Source of the DNA: Styela clava
Taxonomy: Eukaryota
Direction of reading: 5' to 3'
Length of the DNA: 64,000 nt
Assembly: GCF_964204865.1 (NCBI RefSeq)
Contig: NC_135258.1
Coordinates: 10,416,001-10,480,000 of the forward strand
Below the pieces are notes generated by a model, which did not search any database, had not been told where the DNA came from, and was given only the letters and a program-made list of their open reading frames with translations. Position 1 is the stretch's first letter. Each line of letters begins with the position of its first letter. The translations under genes were made by a program, and so were the position numbers. Positions 19,500 to 63,835 of this stretch are shown here, piece after piece.

Positions 19500-20426
19500 T
19501 TCAGGGAGAAGGAAAAGAATGAGCCTAATTAAACAAACCCGAAGGAGAAAGAAAAATGTCAGCGAGGCGGAATAGAAACTCCGCCAAGACTTGTTGGAGA
19601 AACAAAAACTTTTTGCCCAAATGCAACGCGAGTTACGGAGCGCCAAAAAGTGATTTCGCAACAGCGCCATAATGGAGCTATTGACTGTGTCGAACTCCTT
19701 CGGGATCGCGAATAATGAGAAAGTGATCAATGACTTTGCAAACAGTTTGAGAAAGAAACCCTTGTTTGAAATACATAGGCACTGCGCCAACTAGATAAAC
19801 AACTGAAGGACGAAATAAGGGAAGACTTAGACTGTTCCGTAATCTCCGGGCTAGATTACCCGAATTCCCCAGGATGATAATGCAAGGCAGCAAGCGTGGG
19901 GCGATGTAGCAAAGGAATTGCAAGAGTTCTGGAATTTGGAGTTTTGGATCAGCAAGCGGTTAAAGCGACCGGCAGAAGCGGGAGATATTCGAGATCTTCG
20001 ACCCATGCTGTAATGTCATCAAACCTCCACCGGTGAATGTGTATAACATACACTCAACAGATTAGGGGTTCGTGCCCTCTTTTGTCATAGAACGAGAAGA
20101 CGAATCGTTACACTCGAACCCTTACTTTCCTAAGAATGTTGATGATGAACGACTGGCGAACAGTCTGAGGAATTCCCCCGTAACACAAGTGGATGGGCAT
20201 CCTGGAATAGAAGGGACCCGCCTCAGCGGACGAGAAATCGTCTGCTATGACAAGCTAAAGAAGAAACTGGGAAAGGCATGGGAAAACCTAGTCAAACTAA
20301 AGAAATATTTGCCCCGGATCGTTTATTACGTGGCTACTGACTAAAAATGGCTGCCGAAGAAAGCGAGACAAGAATTTGAGCTTCTACGGTGTCACCCACA
20401 GACAGGACACCACAAGAATCCCAAGA
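19500..20426 (+). pseudogene. Decayed intronless coding sequence of unknown type, apparently resuming at 25846-26027
   Basis: GC-richer than the flanks; successive codon-like frames broken by stops and frameshifts (e.g. ORF 20072-20344); similar composition resumes right after the 3' LTR. Confidence 0.4.
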
Positions 20427-20427
20427 A

Positions 20428-20876
20428 AAAATATTATAAATTCTAGTGAGTTCTAGCAAAAGAATTCGACCCAAATATTGCACGCAAGTGCATAATTCTC
20501 ATGTGATATGATGAATCACCCCTATTTTACATGGATTTTGCTAGAGGTATCGAGCAAAGACTGGTTGAAGTGTGAAACCTTACAAATATGATCTCATCAA
20601 ACAAAATATACAGCTAACAGCAACCTTAAGAGACTGATAGTTAAATTATTAATAATAGTTTAGAAGTGTAATTTGTTTATGCTGATTTAAATTATTGTAA
20701 TATATTGTCGAAAGAAATAAAATTGTACAGGTAAACCTTTCTGATCCTTGGCTGTTATATCAAATTAACAGAGATCTCAAACTCAACTGAACACGTAACC
20801 TATACTATATTCTGTTTGGAGTCAGATTAATACATAACTAGTTAATTAGTAGTCAGGAAACAAAATTTACGCTTCA
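20428..20876 (+). repeat. 5' LTR (lacks the first ~65 bp)
   Basis: Matches 25398-25845 with about 8 differences counted by eye; ends ...GCTTCA. Confidence 0.93.
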
Positions 20877-20878
20877 CG

Positions 20879-20890
20879 TCGTGACCCCGA
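20879..20890 (+). other. Primer-binding site, tRNA-Trp type
   Basis: TCGTGACCCCGA, 2 bp after the LTR; one mismatch to TGGTGACCCCGA, the complement of the tRNA-Trp 3' end. Confidence 0.8.
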
Positions 20891-20908: not shown

Positions 20909-20934
20909 ATGGATCATCGCCAACAATCGTAAGT
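20909..20934 (+). other. Env leader mini-exon and splice donor
   Basis: accATGg Kozak context, ATG GAT CAT CGC CAA CAA TC|GTAAGT; joins in frame to the acceptor AG at 21982-21983. Confidence 0.7.
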
Positions 20935-21074
20935 CTTTTTATTTATTATATAGATAGTTTGGTAGTGCAATTTTGTATTGTTAAAATTTTTCTTGTATTA
21001 TACTTATTGAACCTTGTACCTGTTATTGCTTAGTGTGGGCCAGTTTATATTGTATATTGTACCGTATAAGATAA

Positions 21075-21874
21075 ATGCCAAATTTACAAAAAATGTTTAC
21101 GCGAAGTAAAACTCGTAAAACAGAGAAATTAGGTGTAAATCCTTATCAGTTAACACATCTAACTCCAGAAGTGACCAAAGGAAATGACCCACAATTCGGA
21201 CTCCAAAAATTGAACATTTCTGAACCTAATTTAATTGGAAACGAAATAGACGATAGACATTGGCTGAGCTTGCATATGGTAGAACACTAAGACTCCCAGG
21301 AGACTTAGTGGAAAGTTCTAATATAAGTCAGAATCTTGACACATACAGTTATGCTTCTAAATTAAAACGTTTTTTTGGAACTTTTGAAGCTCTTCCAACG
21401 AGGAAGAAAATAATGAGTAATGTATATATTCCACCAAAGTTATTTACATGTAGTCACGTATTTCAACGAATAGATCACGTAAAGAAATCTTTGCAACCCA
21501 ATTATCAAGGGCCATATGAGGTTATATTTCGGAATAAAACTTGTTTTACTATAAAGAAAAACAGAGGAATTGAAAAAGTTTCCATTAATCAATTAAAACC
21601 AGCCGAAATTAGAATTTTTGATACAGATACAGAAGAACTTTCTTCTACTAAACAAAATGATTTTCCTTCTAAAATAGAAAATTCACCGGTAAAAAAGATT
21701 GTTACTACAGATTATAATAATGAATCAAATTTTTCAGTGGTTACGAATCCGACGAGAGAGGAGACAGAGAAAACCAAAGAGGATCAGAACAAGACCAGGT
21801 ATGGCCGGACAGTACGTCCTCCAATCCGGTACGGTCAGGCGGCAATGTGCCAGATCGAAGAAACCGAAGTGTAA
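21075..21874 (+). pseudogene. Probable gag N-terminus joined out of frame to the integrase C-terminal (GPY/F) region
   Basis: AELAYGRTLRLPGDL...CSHVFQRIDHVKKSLQPNYQGPYEV...VSINQLKPA...TRYGRTVRPPIRY is a typical CsRN1-clade integrase tail. No protease, RT, RNase H or DDE core is present. Confidence 0.85.
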
Positions 21875-21983
21875 AGGACGATGATAAAGTAATCTCCCGG
21901 ACCGATAATTATGACAGAAAACTACTTATAGTCTACGTGAAACATGGGGAAGTTGTTGGAACAGAACATATTGCAGACTTTAG

Positions 21984-24148
21984 GTATTTCTGTTTCTTCT
22001 TACTGCTGATAATTTTTTGCAGTCTACCCTGTTTAAGTCTTCGAACAATGGAAATTTCTGGGTATCATTGCCAGAACGACAAAATAAATCAAGAGTACGA
22101 TATATCCGATCATATGGTTAAATGTCAAGCTAAAATTTATCATGCACCAAAATTGCATACCAAAATTCAAATTCGAGCTTGTCAAACAAGCATAACGGAA
22201 TGGCGAAGCCATTTTTTATTTTTTGGGGGCTAAAACTCATTATACTAAAATAATACCTGGCGTACCAACCGCCAAACAAAATTGCCGAAACTGGTTTGAA
22301 ACCCGCGAATCAAATCAGTTTGGTAAATTTGTTCAGAAAACTAATAATTTGTGGGAAACAGAGAATAAGCCGGTCATAAATTATAAATGGCCTACGGCTG
22401 CTTCGGGAGCAACCGAAAACATTGCTCTAATATACTCCTATGTAATGTACGACCATTTAAATTCGAAAAATATATTTCCACTAGCTGACAGCGCAAATTG
22501 CTCTGTGAATCAATCTGCCTGTCAAATTGGCAGTTATACACTTTTATTTGACGATTCAAAATTTGAAATGTGCCCGAATAAAATGGAAGAAATAAATTCC
22601 TCGCTAACCCTGCATATAAACAACACTAACCAAGTGTTTGCTGTAGAATTGGACGAATTACATATGACTTTTCATTCATTTTCAAAATGTAATGAGTTGA
22701 CGACCAGATGCTTTGGCAGTATCTTCTGTCTAGAAAACGAACTTTTGGTTCAAGCTAATAATTGTAGTTTCTTAGAGAAAGTCGACATGATCCGCAAATT
22801 TGCAGATCATCCCGACATTTCGACAGCTCTGACATTGATGATACAAAATGTCGCTGACTCTCAAACCGAGTTGTCAATGAAATTATAAAGCCAAATTTTT
22901 AAACTCGAATGTAACGCTGAACAACTATTATCTAAAATCTATAAAATCTTGGCGAAAACATACCCTTCTGACGTTTTAAATGAAATTCTGGGGACAAACA
23001 ACTTGTTTGCAGTAAACAGAGGAGACGTAATGGGGGCCCTCTGGTGTCAACCTATAAAAGCGACCATTTTAAACAGCCTAAAATTACCTAACAACCTATA
23101 TTCTACACGTCCTCTGGTTAATTATACTGATATATCTAATAACACCGTGATGGGCCAACTTTTAGGCTCTGGAAGACTTATTCCAGGAATTCATTTTTAC
23201 AGTACCGAACTTCTAGAGTTTGTTACGTTTAAAATAAATAGCACGTATTATAGGTACCAAAAGGGGATCCTGCAAAACATGACCTCCAAACCCAAAAAAA
23301 TCCATCCGTATCTTACAACGAAAAAAATAACTCCTTATGATATAAATTATCTTACTTCATTATCTAAGTTCTTTGAAAACGACTTATCCAGTACCAATGA
23401 TATTGATTCTATGTTAATGTCTATAAATCAGAATTCTGCATTTACCAGAAGTCTGATTGATTATGCGAATTCTTTTAATGACGAAAGTGAAACCACTAGT
23501 GCAAATCCTGCACTCCCCTTGAAAATGCTAGCAAAACATATTACGAACATATTGATATCTTTTTTTAGTGGTATAGGCAATAAGTTTCTTAGTACTGTAA
23601 TTTTAATAGGACTAATCTTGGCTATTGTATTTGCATATGGCAAGACTCTGACTCGGACTGGTAGTGGAGTCAAAAGCTTGGCCGGTCGAAGATTGAAAAG
23701 AAAGCTTCTTGATGAACATTCATCTACTTCCGAAAGGCGTACAAGCGATTCTAGAGATCATGAAAGTCAAAGATCACCAATCCATCGCCGTACCCGCTCT
23801 GATGACCGAAACGGCAATCGTTCAAGAGAAGGGCCCGGGCGTTCGTATTTCACCCCACGGGTCACTCGTAGCCAAGCCTGAGCAAGAGGTGCTCCTGCAT
23901 ATGGGCGAGGCAAATCGGGAAATGCGCAACAAAAAGCACGCGCAAGAAGTCCCATTGAGCAGCCCACTACGGCTCAACCCAAAGCACCGAGCCAAAAAGG
24001 GGCCGAAAGTAGCCTAAATGAAAGTGCGAAAAGTTTAATGGCACGAATCGCACCAGGAATGGCACCAGCTGCCGCCAAATTGGGCACAGCAAGCCAGACC
24101 AAAAATGTGCAGATTGTATCTCTGTCGTCCGATAGCGACAGCGGTTAA
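21984..24148 (+). pseudogene. env: env: glycoprotein-B-like (class III) fusion protein plus basic tail; one frameshift (~22225) and stops at 22886 and 23879
   Basis: Signal peptide, Cys-rich ectodomain with many N-X-S/T sites, gB-like motifs LAKTYPSDVLNEILG..AVNRGDVMGALWCQPI and YSTRPLVNY...GQL, and a C-terminal TM helix FLSTVILIGLILAIVFAY. Confidence 0.8.
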
Positions 24149-25332
24149 ATAAAAATTATTGCTGGTCGTGCGACAAAAGACTTATGACCTGATGAATGAC
24201 AGGTTACGTAATCGAGAAATTATAAACGAGAAATATTGAAGTACTCTTTTCTTGCTTATTTGTCGTGCTTGCATTGTCGCCCTTATGCACAAAAACAAAG
24301 TGCCGCTTTTCATACCAGTTTTATTGTTTCACCCGTGTATCGTGTCTTACGAAATCATGAAAATATGGCAGTACCGACCTCTTTCCATTTTCAAAGTCTA
24401 TAGTCTTGCCTTTCTTTTCTGCTTCGCCTATTTATTGTACGTTATATTTCACTATTTTTTCTCGTCTATTTTTAGTGTATATGATATTCATGCTTATTAT
24501 TATTGAAGTGCCTTTTTTCCCCATTATTTTATTGTTTCTTGTTTTCGTCTAATTATCATGCTTTAGAGTTAGTTGGGGGAGTTTAATAATTTTTTTTACA
24601 AATCCCTAAATAACATTCACTGAAAGTATTTAAAGACCTGAATTTTTAACAGGAATAACCACTGATAACGCAAATAGCAATAAAGCTTTCGTCATTAAAA
24701 GAACCGTTTTGAAAGTTATTTAATCTTTTTTTAGTAATGTCTAAATTAATATAATCGTACATTGAATAAATTCTACTTACAAACAAATTTTAAAGTCGTG
24801 TGAGTGAGAGGAAGGTAATATTAATATGTTACTCTTACTCATCCACGCATTTTGAATCACACCAAAATAAATAACTCTTGAAATAAATTATACAAACAAA
24901 ATTATAAAATTAAAATTATATGTGTTCCCCCCTGATGTGTCTTTATCAATGTTCGATTCCAATGTTGCCTTGATTTTATTACAATTAGTGCTTAAGTAAC
25001 GTTTTATTGTTTTTACTATTTGTGTATATATCTATCAATTGCAGTTATCTTTATTGCTTTATTAATTGTGTAAAAATCTATCAATTGCTGTTTTTGTGAC
25101 GTAATATTACTGATTATCTGACATCCAACAGTTTTTTTTGACTTTACGTTATTGATTGTTTTACATCTTATATTGACATTTCAATTTTATTGTTAAAATT
25201 TTAAATTTGGACCTTTGTGCTTTATTGACATAATAATTCCATCATCATATTGCAAGAGAATTTAGGACTTATACAATTATCGGTTAATTTAGTATGTACC
25301 TTTTAAATATTTCGCATGTGGGCTCGGGAAAG

Positions 25333-25845
25333 TGTAACAAATTAACCAATAATTTTGGATGGATTATATCAATGCTAAATATAATTTCTGACGTCATAAA
25401 ATATTATAAATTCTAGAGAGTTCTAGCAAAAGAATTCGACCCAAATATTGCACGCAAGTGAATAATTCTCATGTGATATGATGAATCACCCCTATTTTAC
25501 ATGGATTTTGCTAGAGGTATCGAGCAAAGACTGTTTGAAGTGTGAAACCTTATAAATATGATCTCATCAAACAAAAGATACAGCTAACAGCAACCTTAAG
25601 AGATAGATAGTTAAATTATTAATATAGTTTAGAAGTGTAATTTGTTTATGCTGATTTAAATTATTGTAATATATTGTCGAAAGAAATAAAATTGTACAGG
25701 TAAACCTTTCTGATCCTTGGCTGTTATATCAAATTAACAGAGATCTCAAACTCAACTGAACACGTAACCTATACTATATTCTGTTTGGAGTCAGATTAAT
25801 ACATAACTAGTTAATTAGTAGTCAGGAAACAAAATTTACGCTTCA
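25333..25845 (+). repeat. 3' LTR (513 bp, TG...CA)
   Basis: Starts TGTAAC directly after the purine-rich GGGAAAG; ends GCTTCA; contains AATAAA. Confidence 0.9.
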
Positions 25846-26027: not shown

Positions 26028-26445
26028 GGGTGCAAATGTACGTGGATGTGAATGTCCGCGGATGCAAATGTATGGGAGTGCAAGTTTTTGCAGGGATGTA
26101 AATGTCCGCGGATGCAAATGTATGCGAGTGCAAATTTTTACGTGAATGTAAATGTCCGCGGATGCAAATGTATGTGGGTGCAAATGTACGTAGATGTAAA
26201 TGTCCGCGGATGCAAATGTACAGGGGTGCAAATGTATGTAGATGTAAATGTCCGCGGATGCAAATGTATGCGGGTGCAAATTTACGTGGGTTCTAATGTT
26301 CATGAGTGCAAATGTACGTGAATGTCAATGTCCGCGGATGCAAATGTATGCGGGTGCAAATTTACGTGGGTTCTAATGTACATAGGGGCAAATGTTCGCG
26401 GGTGCAAATTTACGTGGGTAAGAATGTCCGCGGGTGCAAATGCTG
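26028..26445. repeat. Minisatellite array of ~15-16-bp (GC)GG(G/A)TGCAAATGTA(C/T) units
   Basis: More than 20 variant units, e.g. AATGTCCGCGGATGCAAATGTA recurring. Confidence 0.9.
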
Positions 26446-27239
26446 CAAAAAAGGATTGCTGGACTCGTCTTCGCAGTAAGGTACGGTAGTTTGCGTATCC
26501 CAGTGGTCGGGAAATCTGTAGTAATCTGGCCGGGGACGCTTCACTGAATGAATTTTTTTCCGACATTTGACCCCGGAAAAATTTTCACATTCTAAAATTT
26601 TCGGTGTTTATTTTAAGAGTGGTTTCGCGAGTTGTTGCCTATAAAATGAAGTATTTGCTTCACACTATCATTCTAATTCATACCATTCAACAATCTGTTT
26701 TTTAAAAGTACCGGTAAAGAATTTTAGCCTAGTCTATCACAGCTATTTCTACACTAATTTTTGATCACTGTAATTAAACTGAAACTCCTAGGAGGACAAG
26801 GTGACCATTTATTTAAATTTCCGAAAAACAACTAAAAACTAACAAATATAATTCAAAATCGCGGTAATGTTCACGACCACGCCTGAAAGTCTGTCTAAGT
26901 GAGGAATGTGTCTGAGCGGATGCGAAAGGGGGTACTGTTACGTTTATTTTTGCATCTTGCTGATTAACCAATGTCACGAAGTAAACAAGGAAGTCTTTGC
27001 CAGGGGAAACATCCAAACGGCGGTTTTAACGATGAATTAATTTTATATACTATCTACGCTCGAGGAGTATATTACATTTTTTTACGTAACAGAATTTATC
27101 GTGAGACGTTTGGGCTAAGTTTTATTATATCCTAAAAATTATATTGAACAGCTACTCGTTTAACGAGCCTACAATTTATTTATAATTACACAAATTGAAA
27201 CACGCAGAAAAGTTGATGCTGAGGGCAGGGGTTCAATCG

Positions 27240-28634: not shown

Positions 28635-30428
28635 CTACTTGTTTATTCGTCTTGGCAGATAACTTTGCGTTCCAGATGACAACTGTTGATTGATTTTTCT
28701 TGAGTCATAAAAGTTGATTAGCGAAGATCCGTAAGGATATCTTTTCCACCAGTCCGCGTTAAGAGCATTTGAAGAAGTATATGGTGGTGGTGGTAACGAA
28801 ATCGGAAAATTATTTCCCCATGTATGATAGAAACCAAATATTGGCGTCTGGGTTAATAATTTGGAATTAACGTTGATTTCAGTATTTGACATCGCCTGAT
28901 GTGCAGCAGAATCAGAGTTTTTCGCCAATAGCTGTGAAAACAAGTAAGTATAAATTTATGTAAGAATTATTCAAATCAAAGCGAATTTGTATTGGAGTTG
29001 GAACTTGTCTCTCACCTTCTCTATTGTTCTAATAATGTCATCATCACATCCGTTCAACGTTTCCAGTATTTTGCTTGGAAGAACTGTTGGAAATGTTTGG
29101 ACCAGTACCCGGAACTTTCTGTAGAACAAAATAATGATATTCAATACAAGAAACTACTTTGGAGATTTCAACGTGATAAATTTAATTGTTCTAAATTCCA
29201 AAACATAAATAAGTCAGATTCAGATCCGACATAAAAAAAACTTTCAAAAGCTTCGAAAACGTTTTAAATCCGAGAGTGGTTTTATCGTGGTTATTATTGG
29301 TCATCGTCAGTAATGAATAAAAGCAATGCTCAAGTATATGAACACGAATGTCAAAACATTACTGCGATGTCAGCAAAATTGAGGGGGGGGGGGGGGATTC
29401 GTAGTTCCACTTCGTGGCCAATAAGCTTATAGCCCCGGTGGCAACTGCGGGTAGATATAAAAGGCTGTGAATAATTGCAGCACTAACCTTGATGTTGAAT
29501 TATCATTTGAATCAAAAATATGTGCAATGTCCAATTTTGCTGCATTCTTGGCTTGATTGTTGAATTTAGAACCAGCTCTCAATGGAGTAGAGTGTAGAGG
29601 AGAAATTCGGTCACGCACGTCCTCGGAGCTATTTGAATGTTGTTGTGGAGTCGAGACATCGCTACTGTTCGGGGAGAATGAGAAGCATCCAGAGCTCGTG
29701 GCATCACTTTTGTTTTCTATTTGAATCTCTTCGGAGTGATTATCACTAGGGTTTTTGGTCTCTCTATCTTGTTCTCCGACAGTGTTCTCAGATGCTAGTG
29801 GATGGTAACACTCTTCGGTTTTAACCCTTTTTGATGCTGTTGAAATATCAAGAATTGTTTTAAACGCCGATAATTTTATCAATAGCACAAGATGTTTAGG
29901 ATAGTATATTCACCTTGCATAACTTGAGTGCGTTCTGGGAATAAGTTTCGTTTCCCATTGATCAATCTTGATTCTTGAGCCTGTTGTCGACGAAGTGCAA
30001 CCTGGAATATATAAATGAATTAGTTGGGATTTATGTTGGTGCTATATACATTGCAACCCTACTGCGAATTTATGCTAATTCCAACTTACTTGAGCAGCCA
30101 TGACTCTTTGTCTTTCTGCAATCAAGTTACATTTTATGCATTCGCAATTCTTCCATTTGCAAAACCGTTTATGGCCTTTTAAAATACTGATTTCGCCGTG
30201 ATTTCGACACCTGTAAAATGTTAAATATTTTCAAATATTTCATTCGCCAATTGGCTTCGAAGTAAAAACGTTCCAACGTGACACCTACCTTGCGCATTTC
30301 GGCGCTCTGCTCTGTAGCACACTTTGGTCTCTTGATACACTGGCTTGAGATGAATGGTGTGTGAAATAATACTTCGACCCAATAGGTAAAGCGTAAGAAA
30401 TCGTTTGCTGCTTGCGTTTAGAATCCAT
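28635..30428 (-). CDS. dmrt: DMRT transcription factor (DM + DMA domain), copy A, intact
   Basis: Exons 30428-30289, 30210-30090, 30001-29914, 29836-29488, 29118-29016, 28931-28635. DM: RAPKCAR|[40 protein letters not shown]|[13 protein letters not shown]: [32 protein letters not shown]. Confidence 0.93.
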
Positions 30429-49799: not shown

Positions 49800-51726
49800 C
49801 TGACTCCGTTGAAAATTTGAGTAAGGGTTGGATAAATGAAAAAGCATATGGTTATCTTGCCAACAATATCTTGCCTGTCTGAAAGGAACTTGAAGGAGTG
49901 GATGTTGTTGATGGCAGAACTGAAAAATTATATCCAAATGAATAAGAAGCGTTAAACTGATTTGGCATCCAAGCAAACGCTTTGTAATAGGCATTTCCTG
50001 TATCCAGTTACATTTTTGGTGAAGTAGTTCTTTTCTTCAGTAACTGTGAGTGAAAGAAATTTAATTAATGCAAAATAATGATTGTATATGATTTCTTTTG
50101 AATAGGATGAAGCCATTTCTGATCCGAAACAATTTTTAACAAAACGGATATCACAAGTTATAAAAAGTACATATATTAAATTTCCGATTTACAAAGTTCA
50201 TATTTTAATTTTTCTGTAGCATTTGCAAAAAGTCCGGAGAGAGTCCGATTGTAATCCACTGTCATAAAGTATGGGAGTATTTTATGTGTTATCTGATTAC
50301 ATGACCTGAAATTTAACTCGCGACTCTGATCATAACTCATGTTTCCATAGTTAAATTTGTTTCATTACGATAGTCTGGGAAAGCTCGCGTTTTCTCACCT
50401 TTTTCATTGTTTTGATGACAGTTTTCCTTTATATAATGCTTCTCAGTAGTGCATGATTAAAGAGCTATGTAACCAGTGGTGACATTCAGGGGGTTCGCAC
50501 GTTCTTGAAATGACGTGACTATCATCGAACCCGTTCCTGAGCTGAAGACTAATGTAATATTCGGCATTTTGAAAAGTAATGTATTATATCGAATTAAAGC
50601 GTGCCATGTTAATGTAGCTTACGCAGAATCATAAATTAGTAAATATGGTGTTTAGGTATAGGATTATAAGTTTGGCATAGTTTTATGAAATATGGGAACC
50701 TGGAGCGAGTTCTATACCAAAGAGAACCTGTTTTTAAACTACTGAATCGCACCACTGTATGTAACCATACATTTCATAAAACGTTGATTACATGTCTATC
50801 TAGAGTTTTAGTATATGGATTTCTTTTAATTTACCTCTTCAACGAATATCCACAAGCTTCAGTGAATGCTTTGGCCTCTTGTTCCGTATCCACATTCTCT
50901 CTCTCGTCTAATTTGGAGAGATTTCTCACTGAAGTAGAATGAATCGGGTGATCTCGGTCACATTCATCTTTAACGGTGCTTGGGCAATTTGGAGGAATCG
51001 CGACGTCACTGTTACTAGGACACTGTTATTTGTAGTTTGACCTTGGCTTATCCTTTTGACGTCATCATTGGTAATATCGAAATTTGTATCGGCACGAGTC
51101 ATTTCGAATATTGGAGTACGAAAATCATTCTCGATGACGATTCTTTTGGATTCTGTGAATATATACAGAAAATTAAATAGTATAGTTGAAGGTAAAATGC
51201 TAACCTCGAAAAACTTATTTGTACTCTTCATATAAATTGCGTTTTGCATTGATCAGATTAGATTCTTGAGCTTGTTGTCTACCAGTGCCATTAAGCTTAA
51301 TATGTAAATAAATGTAAGTATAAAAAAATATATAAGTTGTTATGATGTATACAAATGGAACCAACGAAATTAGTTTAATTGGACCAACTTGAGCAGCCAT
51401 AACTCTTTGTCTTTCTGCACTCAAGTTAAATTTTACACATTGGCAATTTTTACATTTACAGAACCGTTTGTGACCTTTCAAACGCGAATTTCGCCTCGAT
51501 TTTGACATCTGCGAAGTTTTAAAATACTTTTATTGAAACCATTGTAGCATTTAGGCACATAAAACGAAAATTGCACATTATGTCATATCACTCACCTGGT
51601 GCACTTTGGTGCTAAGTTGGAAACATCACTATGATTGTTTGGTAGACTCTGGCTCACACACCCTGGAAGCTTGTAGATTCCACTGGGATAGATGTATGAT
51701 AACTATTGTTGTTGGGAGGCATGCAT
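49800..51726 (-). pseudogene. dmrt: DMRT relic psi3 (D/E type; all exons recognisable)
   Basis: ATG at 51726 with TAG at codon 8; CRNHG changed to CQNRG followed by a frameshift; exon 5 end at ~50400; exon 6 from ~50043 with stops. Confidence 0.85.
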
Positions 51727-56939: not shown

Positions 56940-59900
56940 ATGACGACGGTTGGTCGACTGAATGTAATCAGGGGCCATATTGGATATGACGCTCCAGAAT
57001 TGGTAAGTTTAGTTTAACTGGTGATTAATTATCTCACATTGTCTAGTATTCAATAATTTAAAATAGTGTTAGAAATGAATTTTCGGGCTCGAATTATCAA
57101 GAAAACTGCTTGGCTAGATAAAATGATTTAATATAAAAAAAAAAATTGTTTCTGACTGTGTCCTCGGCTATAAACCTGGAGCGTTAACCTGATCAGTACT
57201 GGATTAAGCATAAACCAAGATTGGGGCATACCGTGGCTTTGAGTTTATCAGACCTATATTTTCCACGCTGTTTGTTTAATACAGATATCGTTAAAGAGAT
57301 TGGTGATTACTGGACTGAAAATTGATTGTTACTCATTGGGTGCCATTTTCAGGTTACTAAAATGACTTCATCTTCTGGATATCGGTATACTTTAAATTAT
57401 AATGGTAATCTGACGGACGAACAACGACAATTTTACGAGGAAAATGGATATCTTGTAGTGCGTAAGCTTGTTCCACAATATGAGCTTGATATTTATCGGA
57501 AGAGATTTCATGAAATTTGCACAAAGCAGGTCAGAACAAAGTACATATTGGCATATCCAAACGCACATTTTAAATTTGTTTTGCATTATCCTTATATTGA
57601 AAACATAAGGTTTAAATGAATACGTTATGCGCCATTTCGAATACCATGAGTTTACGATGTGTTCATTACAATTGCACAAATCAATTCATCTTTGGGTATT
57701 CCGCAGGCTACGTTTTGCCTGCGATTGATTCACTCTGACACAAACATTTAATTGAACAATATGCATTTTAAAATTAAAGAATCTTTATACTCAATAATTT
57801 TCGGCGATTGATAAATGTAGTAAATAGTTCTGAAAATTGATAAGTCTCAATAAAATACAGAAGATTTGCAAATTGGATGCAAAAGTGAAATATCTGAAGA
57901 AGAAACAAAGTTACACTAAAATGTTTTAATCATCTTATCTGTGTTGAAAAAAAAAGTTTTGTTATGTGTGTGTAAATCATTTATTGAAAATGCTGAAGGT
58001 TGCAATTCCCGGTCTAGGAATGATGAGGGATGTCTCCATTGCCAAAGACAAGTCTATACAAGGAGAAAAGGCAATTAACAAGATTCAGCATTTTCAAAAC
58101 GATCCTGTTCTTTTCAGTTATCTCCACTCTCCAAGGGTAATAAATTCCATATAAATTTTGGTATTAGTAAAATCTTTCATAAATAAATTGCTAATCAATG
58201 AAATTAGGAAACTTTGAGTTAGGTACAATTTGTCTTGTCTAGCGATATCATCTGACAAGTTTGCAACCTGTTTTTAATAAATGCGAGTGGCGAATGCAAG
58301 AAGTAATCTAATTAAAAAGTTAACCTAGCTCGTCATGAAGTCAACTCTGCCATATCTCTTTTTTATTTTTCAATAAAACTCTTCTTGCATTTTTGGGAAT
58401 GCTCATCCAACAAACAATTTCAGTACAAACATTTCATATTTGAGCAAATACGGAGAAACCAGCTGTCATACTGCCAAAACCTATTTCGTACTCTCCAAAT
58501 CACAACCTATTTCGTACTCTCCAAATATTTATTTTTTATTGAAAATCATTAAATGCATTTCAGATCCTTCAATACGTCGAAGCCATTACTGGGCCTGATA
58601 TAACGGCCATTCATTCAATGCTGATAAATAAACCCCCGGACTCAGGTAGGATACTATTAATCATATAAATGTATATGGGGATCCAATGCTAGCGTAGATA
58701 TCTCCAAATTTATTTCAAACTATAAAATCGCAAATCTCAGAGCTTTGCTGATAATCCGAATAAACACATGCGGGCATTCCAAACTGTTTTCCTCTATCAA
58801 TATACTGATTTGCGTTTACTCCTAATAAATGTTCCCTGATCTATTTGTCGTACACTATTAATGTTGCAATAAGGACAAATAACGTAAAAATATTTGCGAT
58901 GTTGACCTAATGTTAATAATTATACAAGGCTATGTTTGCTTTCTTGTCATGGCGCTGCTGTTGTGTTCCTCTCCAATTATGCATGATTCACTGCCTGTTC
59001 ATGTAATGTGAATGATGGTTTAGAAAGGATGATAATAGCGATTACATTCTCATCGATATTGAAAACATGAGACATATTGATAGTTTTGCTAATAAGATTT
59101 TGATACTCATGTGGTTGTTGTTAATTAAATAGGAAAAAAGATTACTTTTGCAATTAATCTCCGCTACTGAACCAATGACTATTAGATTTCCAGCAGTTAA
59201 GGAAGAAAGTGTCTTCTAGATTCTAGACCTAGAAAACCGTAATTCTTACATTTTATCTGGAGCTCATTGTTTCAACCAAACTTTGCTAATCAATGAGTGC
59301 TGTACATTTACACGGGGTTAGTCAACTAGTAACGGTAGGTATTAAATGTCCATTCCCTTGTACATTGTACTATTTTCAGCGCAAGAAACTTTTCACCCAG
59401 TTTGTGTAGACTGTTCAAAATCGCAAAAATATATAATTTGTTATAGGAAACTTAAAAATGTTTTTATCATATTAAGGTAAAAAGACATCTCGGCACCCGC
59501 TTCATCAAGATCTCCATTACTTTCTACTGCGACCTGCAGATCGGATTGCTTGTGCATGGACTGCAATGCAGAAAATTGACAGAAGTAATGGATGCCTTGT
59601 TGTACTGCCAGGAACACACAAGCAACCGTTAAAAGAGCACAAATATCCAGACTGGGAGGTTTGTAATACTGTTCAGTTAGTTGAAGTAGTTAAAATTGCT
59701 CTGAATGCATATGCGATTATCAATGTAGATTGATTCTTTATTTAGCCAGAGCAAATATAATCTAGCATTAATTCAATTCAACATTTTAGGGTGGTGTGAA
59801 TAAAATGTATTATGGAGTAGAAGACTACGACGAAAATGCTCCCAGACACCATCTAGTGATGGATGAAGGTGATACCGTATTCTTTCATCCATTACTCGTT

Positions 59901-62556: not shown

Positions 62557-63835
62557 ATGGCTGCGGTTGATCGACTGAATGTGATCAGGGGCCATATTGG
62601 ATATGACGTCCCAAAATTGGTAAGTTTAACTAGTGATTTATTATCTCACATTGTCTAGTATTTAATAATTTCAAATAGAGTTGGAAATAAGTTTTCAAGC
62701 TTGAAATTATTAGGGATAAACCGAGCTTTGTTATAAAAATGATTAAATGTGAAAAAAAAAACTGACTGTATCCTCAGCTACAAACAGGAAGCGTTGAAAA
62801 CTGGTCAGAACTGAATTGAGCCTAAAGCCAAAATTTGGGCTCATCGTGGTATTCAGTTTATCAAACCTATATCATCCGCGCTGTTTGTTTAATACAGATA
62901 TTGTTAAATAGATTGGTGATTACTGAACTGAAAATTGATTGTTACTCATTGGGTGTCATTTTCAGGTTACTAAAATGACTTCATCTTCTGGATATCGGTA
63001 TACTTTAAATTATAATGGTAAACTAACGAACGAACAACGACAATTTTACGAGGAAAATGGATATCTTGTAGTGCGTAAGCTTGTTCCACAATATGAGCTT
63101 GATATTTATCGGATAAGATTTCATGAAATTTGCACAAAACAGGTCAGAACAAAGTACATATTGCCATATCCAAACGCACATTTTATTTGTAGCAATTTAC
63201 TTGGAATAATTGCTTTCTAGTATATTTTTGCGAAAATTCGCTTTGTGATTATTTTTGCATTATCCTTATATTGAAACGTAAAATTTAAATGAATACGTTA
63301 TGCGCCATTTCAAATGCCATACGTGTACGATGTGTTCATTACAATTGTACGAGTCAATTCATCTTTGGTTACATCGCTGGCTGCGTTTTGCCTGCGATTG
63401 ATTCACTCTGACACAAACGTTATTGATTCACTTTGACACAAACGTTTACTTGAACAATATGCATTTTAAAATTGAGGAATCTTCATACTCAATAATTTTC
63501 GGCGATTGTTAAATGCAGTAAATAGTTCTAAAGATTAGTAAGTCTTAATAAAATACAGAAGATTTGCAAATTGGATGTAAAAGTGGAATATCTAAAGATG
63601 AAACATAGTTACACTAAAATGTTTTACACATCTTATCTGCGTTGAAAAAATATAATTTCGTTATGTGTGAGTAAATCATTTATTGAAAATGATGAAGATT
63701 GCCATTCCCGGCCTAGGAATGATGAGGGATGTCTCCATTGCCAAAGACAAGTCAATACAAGGAGAAAAGGCAATTAACAAGATTCAGAATTTTCAAAACG
63801 ATCCTGTTCTTTTCAGTTATCTCCACTCTCCAAGG
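62557..63835 (+). CDS. PHYH: Phytanoyl-CoA dioxygenase copy 2, first three exons; runs off the right edge
   Basis: Exons 62557-62619, 62966-63142, 63698-63835, near-identical to copy 1. Confidence 0.92.

Follow-up and report, generated by a model that had tools for sequence, protein, structure and literature searches.

Env splicing in described elements and in Styela clava

In the Drosophila elements ZAM and Beagle, a mini-exon upstream of gag is spliced to env (PMC12992720), and the env RNA of the Oikopleura element Tor3a follows the same mini-exon plan (PMC4402516). Doubly spliced env RNAs are described for HERV-K(HML-2), where the long signal peptide of Env contributes its N-terminal 87 aa to rec and the rest comes from an exon near the 3' end of env (PMC12724133), and for MMTV, where rem is read in the env frame and includes a 98-aa signal peptide (PMC8725593). 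Retrocopies of spliced rec RNA also exist (PMC3590776). In ascidians, gypsy elements with a gB-type env are already known: Chary & Hayashi described Ty3/gypsy 'errantiviruses' with an HSV/gB-type ENV, with tunicate members among those listed, and entered Styela clava as having 'No intact copies' in the assembly used there (PMC13524379).

We studied a window of 64,000 nucleotides of the Styela clava genome (the whole stretch of DNA that was analysed), which holds a Ty3/gypsy retrotransposon with an internal deletion and an env of the herpes-gB type. This ascidian element resembles the errantiviruses of PMC13524379, as described in the parts of that paper covered here, in its gag-pol-env order, its RT-RNaseH-integrase pol, its gB-type env, its LTRs and a tRNA-Trp primer-binding site (PBS) as in Clavelina errantivirus_1. 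In its main text 'splic' does not occur, and the parts covered do not describe a product made of the leader and tail of Env. As in the accounts of ZAM/Beagle and Tor3a, the main env exon of the Styela element is joined to a short peptide-coding exon upstream of gag, and expression is LTR-driven. Unlike ZAM and Beagle, which have an F-type Env with an N-terminal signal peptide, it has a leader of ~86-89 aa before the hydrophobic segment of Env, and it has a second intron inside env, which the parts covered of PMC12992720 and PMC4402516 do not describe for ZAM/Beagle or Tor3a. We consider it probable, taking the second splice together with the rest, that the window locus is a damaged copy of an ascidian Ty3/gypsy element and that the gB-type env of this element consists of three exons, arranged as a cassette.

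All features of the element lie on the + strand. Its 3' LTR (25333..25845, TG...CA) has a short purine run just upstream (25326-25332). The 5' LTR (20428..20876) lacks its first ~64 nt, for which no match was found elsewhere in the 64-kb window, and shows 7 mismatches over 448 nt with the 3' LTR; the repeat pair 20428-20876 / 25398-25845 corresponds to these LTRs. The PBS (20879..20890) is a PBS-like 12-mer of the tRNA-Trp type that matches at 11 of 12 positions, and is identical to the Trp_CCA PBS given for a Clavelina errantivirus in supplement 1 of PMC13524379. Further on, the start of gag is fused to the C-terminus of the integrase (21075..21874) by a gag-pol deletion of ~5,527 nt, with a 7-nt microhomology near 21256, through which the window copy lost its RT. 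We rejected the fusion as a splice because the joint shows microhomology and not GT-AG. Owing to this 5.5-kb internal deletion, the first intron of 1,055 nt seen in the window is an artefact, the real one being longer than 6 kb. A 16-nt tandem repeat with at least 16 diverged units lies directly behind the 3' LTR (26091-26458).

With 4 and 22 matches, two DNA searches of the genome identified 11 other loci, and later searches added three more loci and several distant ones; all of these counts are lower bounds. Two copies (C18 and C13) are more than 90% alike to the window copy, and a sister subfamily (C9, C6b, C6c, C4, C5, C1, C2 and C10b) is ~75% alike to it. RefSeq proteins of Styela clava are 96-98% identical to the sister Env. 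Full-length copies encode a gag with DUF7041, followed by RT-RNaseH-integrase; in C9, which has DUF7041 in gag, the domains behind gag come as RVT_1, RT_RNaseH, Integrase_H2C2 and rve, i.e., in the pol order of Ty3/gypsy (Metaviridae). The family has TG...CA LTRs, a PBS and target duplications. The LTR pairs are 99.2-100% alike in C9, C6c, C4, C1 and C2, and the duplications, checked in other copies since the 5' end of the window copy is lost, measure 4 bp in C2, C4, C1, C9 and L073 and 5 bp in C6c. In three deleted copies (L029, L031 and L073), a complete 18-nt PBS complementary to a tRNA is fused to internal or LTR-like sequence, which indicates that strand transfer went astray in reverse transcription. 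Two further gB-env gypsy families (L108, L109, L111 and L112), with an Env 29-30% identical, have LTR pairs 99.5-100% alike and long open frames, which contrasts with the 'No intact copies' entry for Styela clava in PMC13524379.

Splice junctions of the env RNA

The RNA evidence consists of assembled contigs, not raw reads, and contigs drop rare variants. The RNA status of the runs X1, X4, X6 and X9 is an automatic guess, backed by the absence of cover on the flank 20300-20681 and by GT..AG joints that are missing in the DNA run; nine runs that contain the sequence were guessed to be RNA, none being on record as such. Contig depths were left out of the ranking of isoforms. The RefSeq models were generated automatically, and the same public RNA may underlie them. 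Because the contigs carry the variants of other copies, and because the window copy lacks the second acceptor (acceptor C, below), transcription of the window copy itself is not supported.

The coding part of env exon 1 (20909..20928) starts with an ATG at 20909 in the context accATGg. It has 20 coding nt up to the donor, i.e., the ATG, five codons and two bases of a split codon (phase 2), where the sequence-only reading had counted six codons after the ATG. The same reading had placed a donor at 20928/20929 (TC|GTAAGT), and this site, donor 1 (GTAAGT, 20929..20934), is real and used: it is kept in six of the seven copies with an unspliced exon 1, the seventh retaining the GT, and the X9 contig leaves the window sequence at 20928. 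If exon 1 is not spliced, its mini-frame ends at a stop inside the donor (20930-20932).

The acceptor used with donor 1 (acceptor A, 21736..21737) lies inside the integrase tail. Its junction, 21737/21738, is 246 nt upstream of 21983/21984, and its CAG is found in 9/9 copies that keep the intron end. Exon 2 (21738..21983) encodes the hydrophilic env leader in 81 full codons and overlaps the integrase frame up to 21874. After leaving the window at 20928, the X9 contig continues from 21738 in the C18 variant (one of the three probable RNA runs). Exons 1 and 2 of the sister copy are likewise joined in X9 (again one run of three), two donors in pol also reach acceptor A, and an X6 contig spans exactly exon 2 on this copy (L049 5408-5648). 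It counts against our explanation that the sister-family contig join could stem from transcribed retrocopies. The RefSeq models P0002, P0007 and P0130-P0134 all begin with exon 1 and exon 2, none with exon 1 and the hydrophobic segment. Env is expressed from a spliced subgenomic RNA whose start codon is supplied by a mini-exon downstream of the PBS; this mini-exon, upstream of gag, is spliced to the env exon as in the env subgenomic mRNAs of the ZAM/Beagle type.

Two members of the sister subfamily, C2 (L041) and C10b (L033), have the structure LTR-env-LTR. They contain the exact exon 1-exon 2 junction: exon 1 ends at L049 position 300 and is followed, without insertion or loss of a base, by 5408, which corresponds to window 21738. 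The two LTRs of C2 are 99.7% alike, its target duplication measures 4 bp and its 18-nt tRNA-type PBS is complete; it was therefore probably produced by the element's own machinery copying back a spliced RNA. In a third retrocopy (L072), exon 1 is joined straight to the tail exon (window 23644), in frame, which corresponds to the 301->7760 joint of the DNA run. Spliced RNAs of this family have reintegrated with two LTRs; the copying back of spliced env RNAs can therefore produce env-only elements with both LTRs.

A second intron lies inside env. The site at 21983/21984, originally proposed as the env acceptor, is a splice donor (donor B, AG|GT, phase 2; 21984..21989), whose homologue is the donor of three GT..AG joints and at which RefSeq models end or turn. 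In the sister copy, the joint L049 5644->7306 was found in X1, X6 and X9 (3/3 probable RNA runs), with 26 letters on its short side against a bridging standard of 31 letters. It reads GT..AG after a shift, with the donor at L049 5647/5648 (the homologue of window 21983/21984) and the acceptor one codon past the membrane anchor (window 23643/23644). The joint is absent from the DNA run X10 (0/1), where a contig runs through unbroken. The sister copy shows three more GT..AG joints within env and another that starts in pol, and X10 lacks these as well. Acceptor C (23642..23643) is missing in the window copy; of the other close copies in which this region is kept, 9/9 have it, as do two distant copies. 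Exon 3 (23644..24148), the Arg/Ser-rich cytoplasmic tail of Env, is interrupted in the window by a stop at 23879-23881.

As all four splice sites are in phase 2, the join of donor B to acceptor C is in frame, and its product consists of the leader (86 aa) and the tail (140 aa) without a hydrophobic segment. Among 77 candidates, a search with the tail only returned one protein, a 226-aa RefSeq model that is exactly leader plus tail (P0151); four of the ten members of its cluster have this length. That both junctions occur on the same molecule, a doubly spliced env RNA whose first coding part is the env leader, is indicated by the RefSeq models and by the contig made of exon 2 only. The junction of exons 1 and 2 is thus seen in genomic retrocopies and contigs, and that of donor B and acceptor C in contigs of probable RNA runs and in RefSeq models. 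The cut removes the signal segment, the ectodomain and the anchor, a layout as in HERV-K rec and MMTV rem.

A distant copy (L107), with an env only 63-67% identical, has AG|GT and CAG at the aligned positions of donor B and acceptor C, as well as same-phase candidate sites for donor 1 and acceptor A, both picked by eye. On its own, this conservation weighs little in favour of our explanation, since 10/26 YAG and 2/2 AGGT motifs of the aligned stretches are conserved as well. Donor B and the hydrophobic segment have been lost from C18 and C13 through a 61-nt deletion (21978-22038). A weak donor (22095..22100) is used in the RNA of copies that lack donor B, the joint 22094->23650 being present in 3/3 probable RNA runs and not in the DNA run. 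We do not regard it as the second donor of the family, since only copies without donor B use it and the sister copy does not. The joints 21977->22039 and 24245->24306 were rejected as splices because they are genomic deletions in C18 and C13, and 20730->20881 because it is a deletion in the 5' LTR of C18. A CT..AC joint in X1 (L049 5781-6064) may mark an intron in a transcript that crosses env in antisense.

The Env protein and its leader-tail isoform

Full-length Env comprises, after its leader, a hydrophobic signal/anchor segment (21985..22038; residues 90-107 of the spliced product) and a gB-type (class III) ectodomain with a membrane anchor (22039..23640). The window env has one frameshift and two stops; the ectodomain part contains the frameshift (near 22200-22230) and a stop (22886-22888). 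The fold was tested on the open frame of the sister. A word-indexed homologue search with the whole sister Env gave no match, and a full HMMER search with it gave 129 homologues. Pfam Glycoprotein_B was matched at E<=0.001 by 14 of the 16 homologues scanned, in one case above the curated cut-off, and the profile match to HCMV gB had an E-value of 1e-21. The fold predicted from the single sequence had a pLDDT of 36, and the one from a 45-sequence alignment a pLDDT of 68. With the latter model, Foldseek matched gB with an E-value of 6e-19 and TM-scores of only 0.2-0.4. The modelled fold of Env is thus of the gB type, with a herpes-gB-like class III ectodomain predicted between two hydrophobic segments, as in the gB-type env-carrying errantiviruses of PMC13524379. 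In one 1,463-aa homologue (P0124), the gB-like domain is split by a long Thr-rich, charged insertion.

The leader has about 89 hydrophilic residues before the hydrophobic segment in the window and 86 aa in the sister, where it is acidic (13 K/R, including 9 Arg, and 22 D/E in 86 aa). The sister tail has 27 Arg and no Lys in 140 aa. Both parts are predicted to be disordered. A tail of at least 120 aa was found in one of the 32 near-full-length homologues, and an Atlas search with the tail gave no usable match. In the two other gB-env families of the genome, a Met is found at a short signal segment, and the tails are short. As the start, leader and tail depend on splicing, gB-type env genes of such elements can be mis-annotated from genomic frames alone.

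We propose that three RNAs would share the coding capacity of the element. The unspliced RNA would make Gag-Pol, because the mini-frame stops inside the donor. The singly spliced RNA would make Env with a cytosolic leader of ~86-89 aa and an internal signal segment, and the doubly spliced one a soluble protein of 226 aa, acidic in its N-half and rich in Arg in its C-half, that lacks a hydrophobic segment. It is likely that the splice from donor B to acceptor C yields such a soluble accessory protein. The chances that this protein has a selected function of any kind seem evenly balanced. Our guess is that it acts as an RNA-binding helper for the intron-retaining RNA of the element, in export, translation or packaging; a Rev/Rec-like function in export would be unlikely. 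We hold a similarly low opinion of the wider proposal that a Ty3/gypsy element independently evolved the plan of complex retroviruses, in which a doubly spliced env RNA encodes a membrane-free, Arg-rich regulator of the fate of unspliced RNA, i.e., an analogue of Rec/Rem outside Retroviridae on a herpes-gB-type envelope.

Like that of rec as described in PMC12724133, the first coding part of the Styela isoform is an Env leader cut before the end of the signal peptide and joined to a 3' exon of env. Unlike the Styela join, which is in frame, that of rec leads to a last exon in another frame. The Arg-rich NLS and the NES of rec are reported in its signal-peptide part, whereas the Styela leader is acidic, the Arg-rich region is the tail, and one simple leucine-rich export pattern had no match in leader or tail. 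The two also belong to different families with different fusogen classes, and the likeness is one of layout. Rem differs in that it keeps the membrane targeting of the signal peptide and is cleaved in the ER (PMC8725593), whereas the Styela product drops the hydrophobic segment entirely. Given a leader devoid of an Arg-rich RNA-binding/NLS motif and the lack of a match to the export pattern, the leader-tail protein is not a member of the Rec/Rem type.

The splice from donor B would also lower the output of fusogen, as a by-product or as its sole purpose, and the latter is the main rival to an accessory protein. The splice map would then be right and the second splice would be a regulated or leaky removal of env (a throttle on the fusogen, or host silencing), leaving the leader-tail protein without a selected job. 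We regard this as a serious contender, with a chance somewhat short of even. Several acceptors are joined to donor B, and two of these (L049 6178 and 6379) are out of frame, which gives leader-only peptides of 86-87 aa, as expected of a leaky site and contrary to our explanation. Yet among the joints inside env, only the one from donor B to acceptor C occurs in each of the three runs, and it keeps the frame. The use of the same acceptor by a weaker donor where donor B is deleted suggests a strong acceptor and not a protected product. Donor B nonetheless precedes the hydrophobic segment by a single codon, and acceptor C follows the anchor at the same distance, so that only membrane-bound parts are removed, and both sites persist in the distant subfamily. 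The negative searches for an export motif and for relatives of the tail fit a protein without a job, whereas an Arg-rich tail of this length is unusual among the relatives.

The leader peptide of foamy-virus Env ties Env to Gag. The Styela leader could similarly be a structural part of Env, in which case the leader-tail protein would be a membrane-free adaptor or competitor in particle assembly and not an RNA regulator. Leader and tail would both face the cytosol in full Env, one acidic and the other basic, and a gB-type errantivirus Env with two membrane segments has been reported (PMC13524379). Against this, both parts are predicted to be disordered, their binding is putative, and a tail with 27 Arg and no Lys fits binding to nucleic acids at least as well. 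We therefore find this role quite improbable.

We retain as preferred explanation a second splice that makes a soluble accessory protein. In the literature covered, to which most subscription journals do not belong, we found no report of a doubly spliced env or a Rev-like product in gypsy elements, nor any on Styela elements. Splicing env once is ordinary, whereas the corrected map, with its isoform that joins head to tail in frame and its three retrocopied isoform copies, represents a new variant. The family bears on how the intron-containing genomic RNA of LTR retrotransposons leaves the nucleus alongside env splicing, and on whether accessory genes carved out of env by a second splice are confined to retroviruses. 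It is a chordate case of recent activity, whose isoforms are preserved in genomic DNA as retrocopies and can also be seen in RNA assemblies, which makes the question directly testable.

The site at 21983/21984 and other features of the window

The sequence-only reading had joined exon 1 to 21984, with a short canonical signal peptide as the product. The AG at 21982-21983 is present in the window and in eight sister copies, the join would be in frame (phase 2), and the hydrophobic stretch begins at 21985. Frame alone does not single out this AG, because the interval 21724-21983 contains nine AGs in frame, and the pyrimidine tract of this one is poor (8 pyrimidines in the preceding 17 nt). We sought the junction 20928^21984 in the contigs of the three probable RNA runs and found it neither among the joints nor among the 24 of 85 loose ends listed; its homologues in the sister copy gave no joint and were absent from the 23 of 25 loose ends listed. 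Two retrocopies, contigs and RefSeq models use 21737/21738, which places the hydrophobic segment at residue 90 in the window and at residue 87 in the sister, and not at residue 8. Relatives with short N-terminal signal peptides fit the original proposal: among 32 near-full-length, Met-starting homologues, the first hydrophobic stretch lies by residue 25 in 20, at residue 52 in one and at residue 60 or beyond in none, with 11 having none by the threshold used and with starts that are predictions and could miss spliced leaders. As the junction is absent from the contigs, the three retrocopies and the RefSeq models examined, as the site acts as a donor, and as copy C6a retains the GT without the AG, splicing to 21984 is contradicted as the main route and is very improbable, although contigs drop rare variants and a minor isoform may exist.

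The idea of a retrovirus-style spliced subgenomic env mRNA thus holds for the splice of the mini-exon, and fails for the acceptor, the product and the role of the 21983 site. In other copies, the GT of donor 1 is found in all seven that show exon 1 unspliced, and the AG at 21983, present in eight sister copies, belongs to a donor. Spliced contigs, retrocopies and RefSeq models bear out the view that env is an integral, transcribed gene of the element family.

Two other groups of exons were noted in the window. Duplicated first exons resembling PhyH (phytanoyl-CoA dioxygenase), with a Pfam score just under the cut-off, lie 5.6 kb apart at 57326-57619 and 62939-63220. Between 28,000 and 56,000, there are at least six DM-domain (Dmrt-like) exons (30084-30188(-), 34223, 40098, 46050, 51374-51505(-) and 53649), arranged in repeated units of 5.6-7.6 kb, some of them inverted. 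Judging from the sequence, this array appears to be a local expansion of doublesex/mab-3-type genes in an ascidian.
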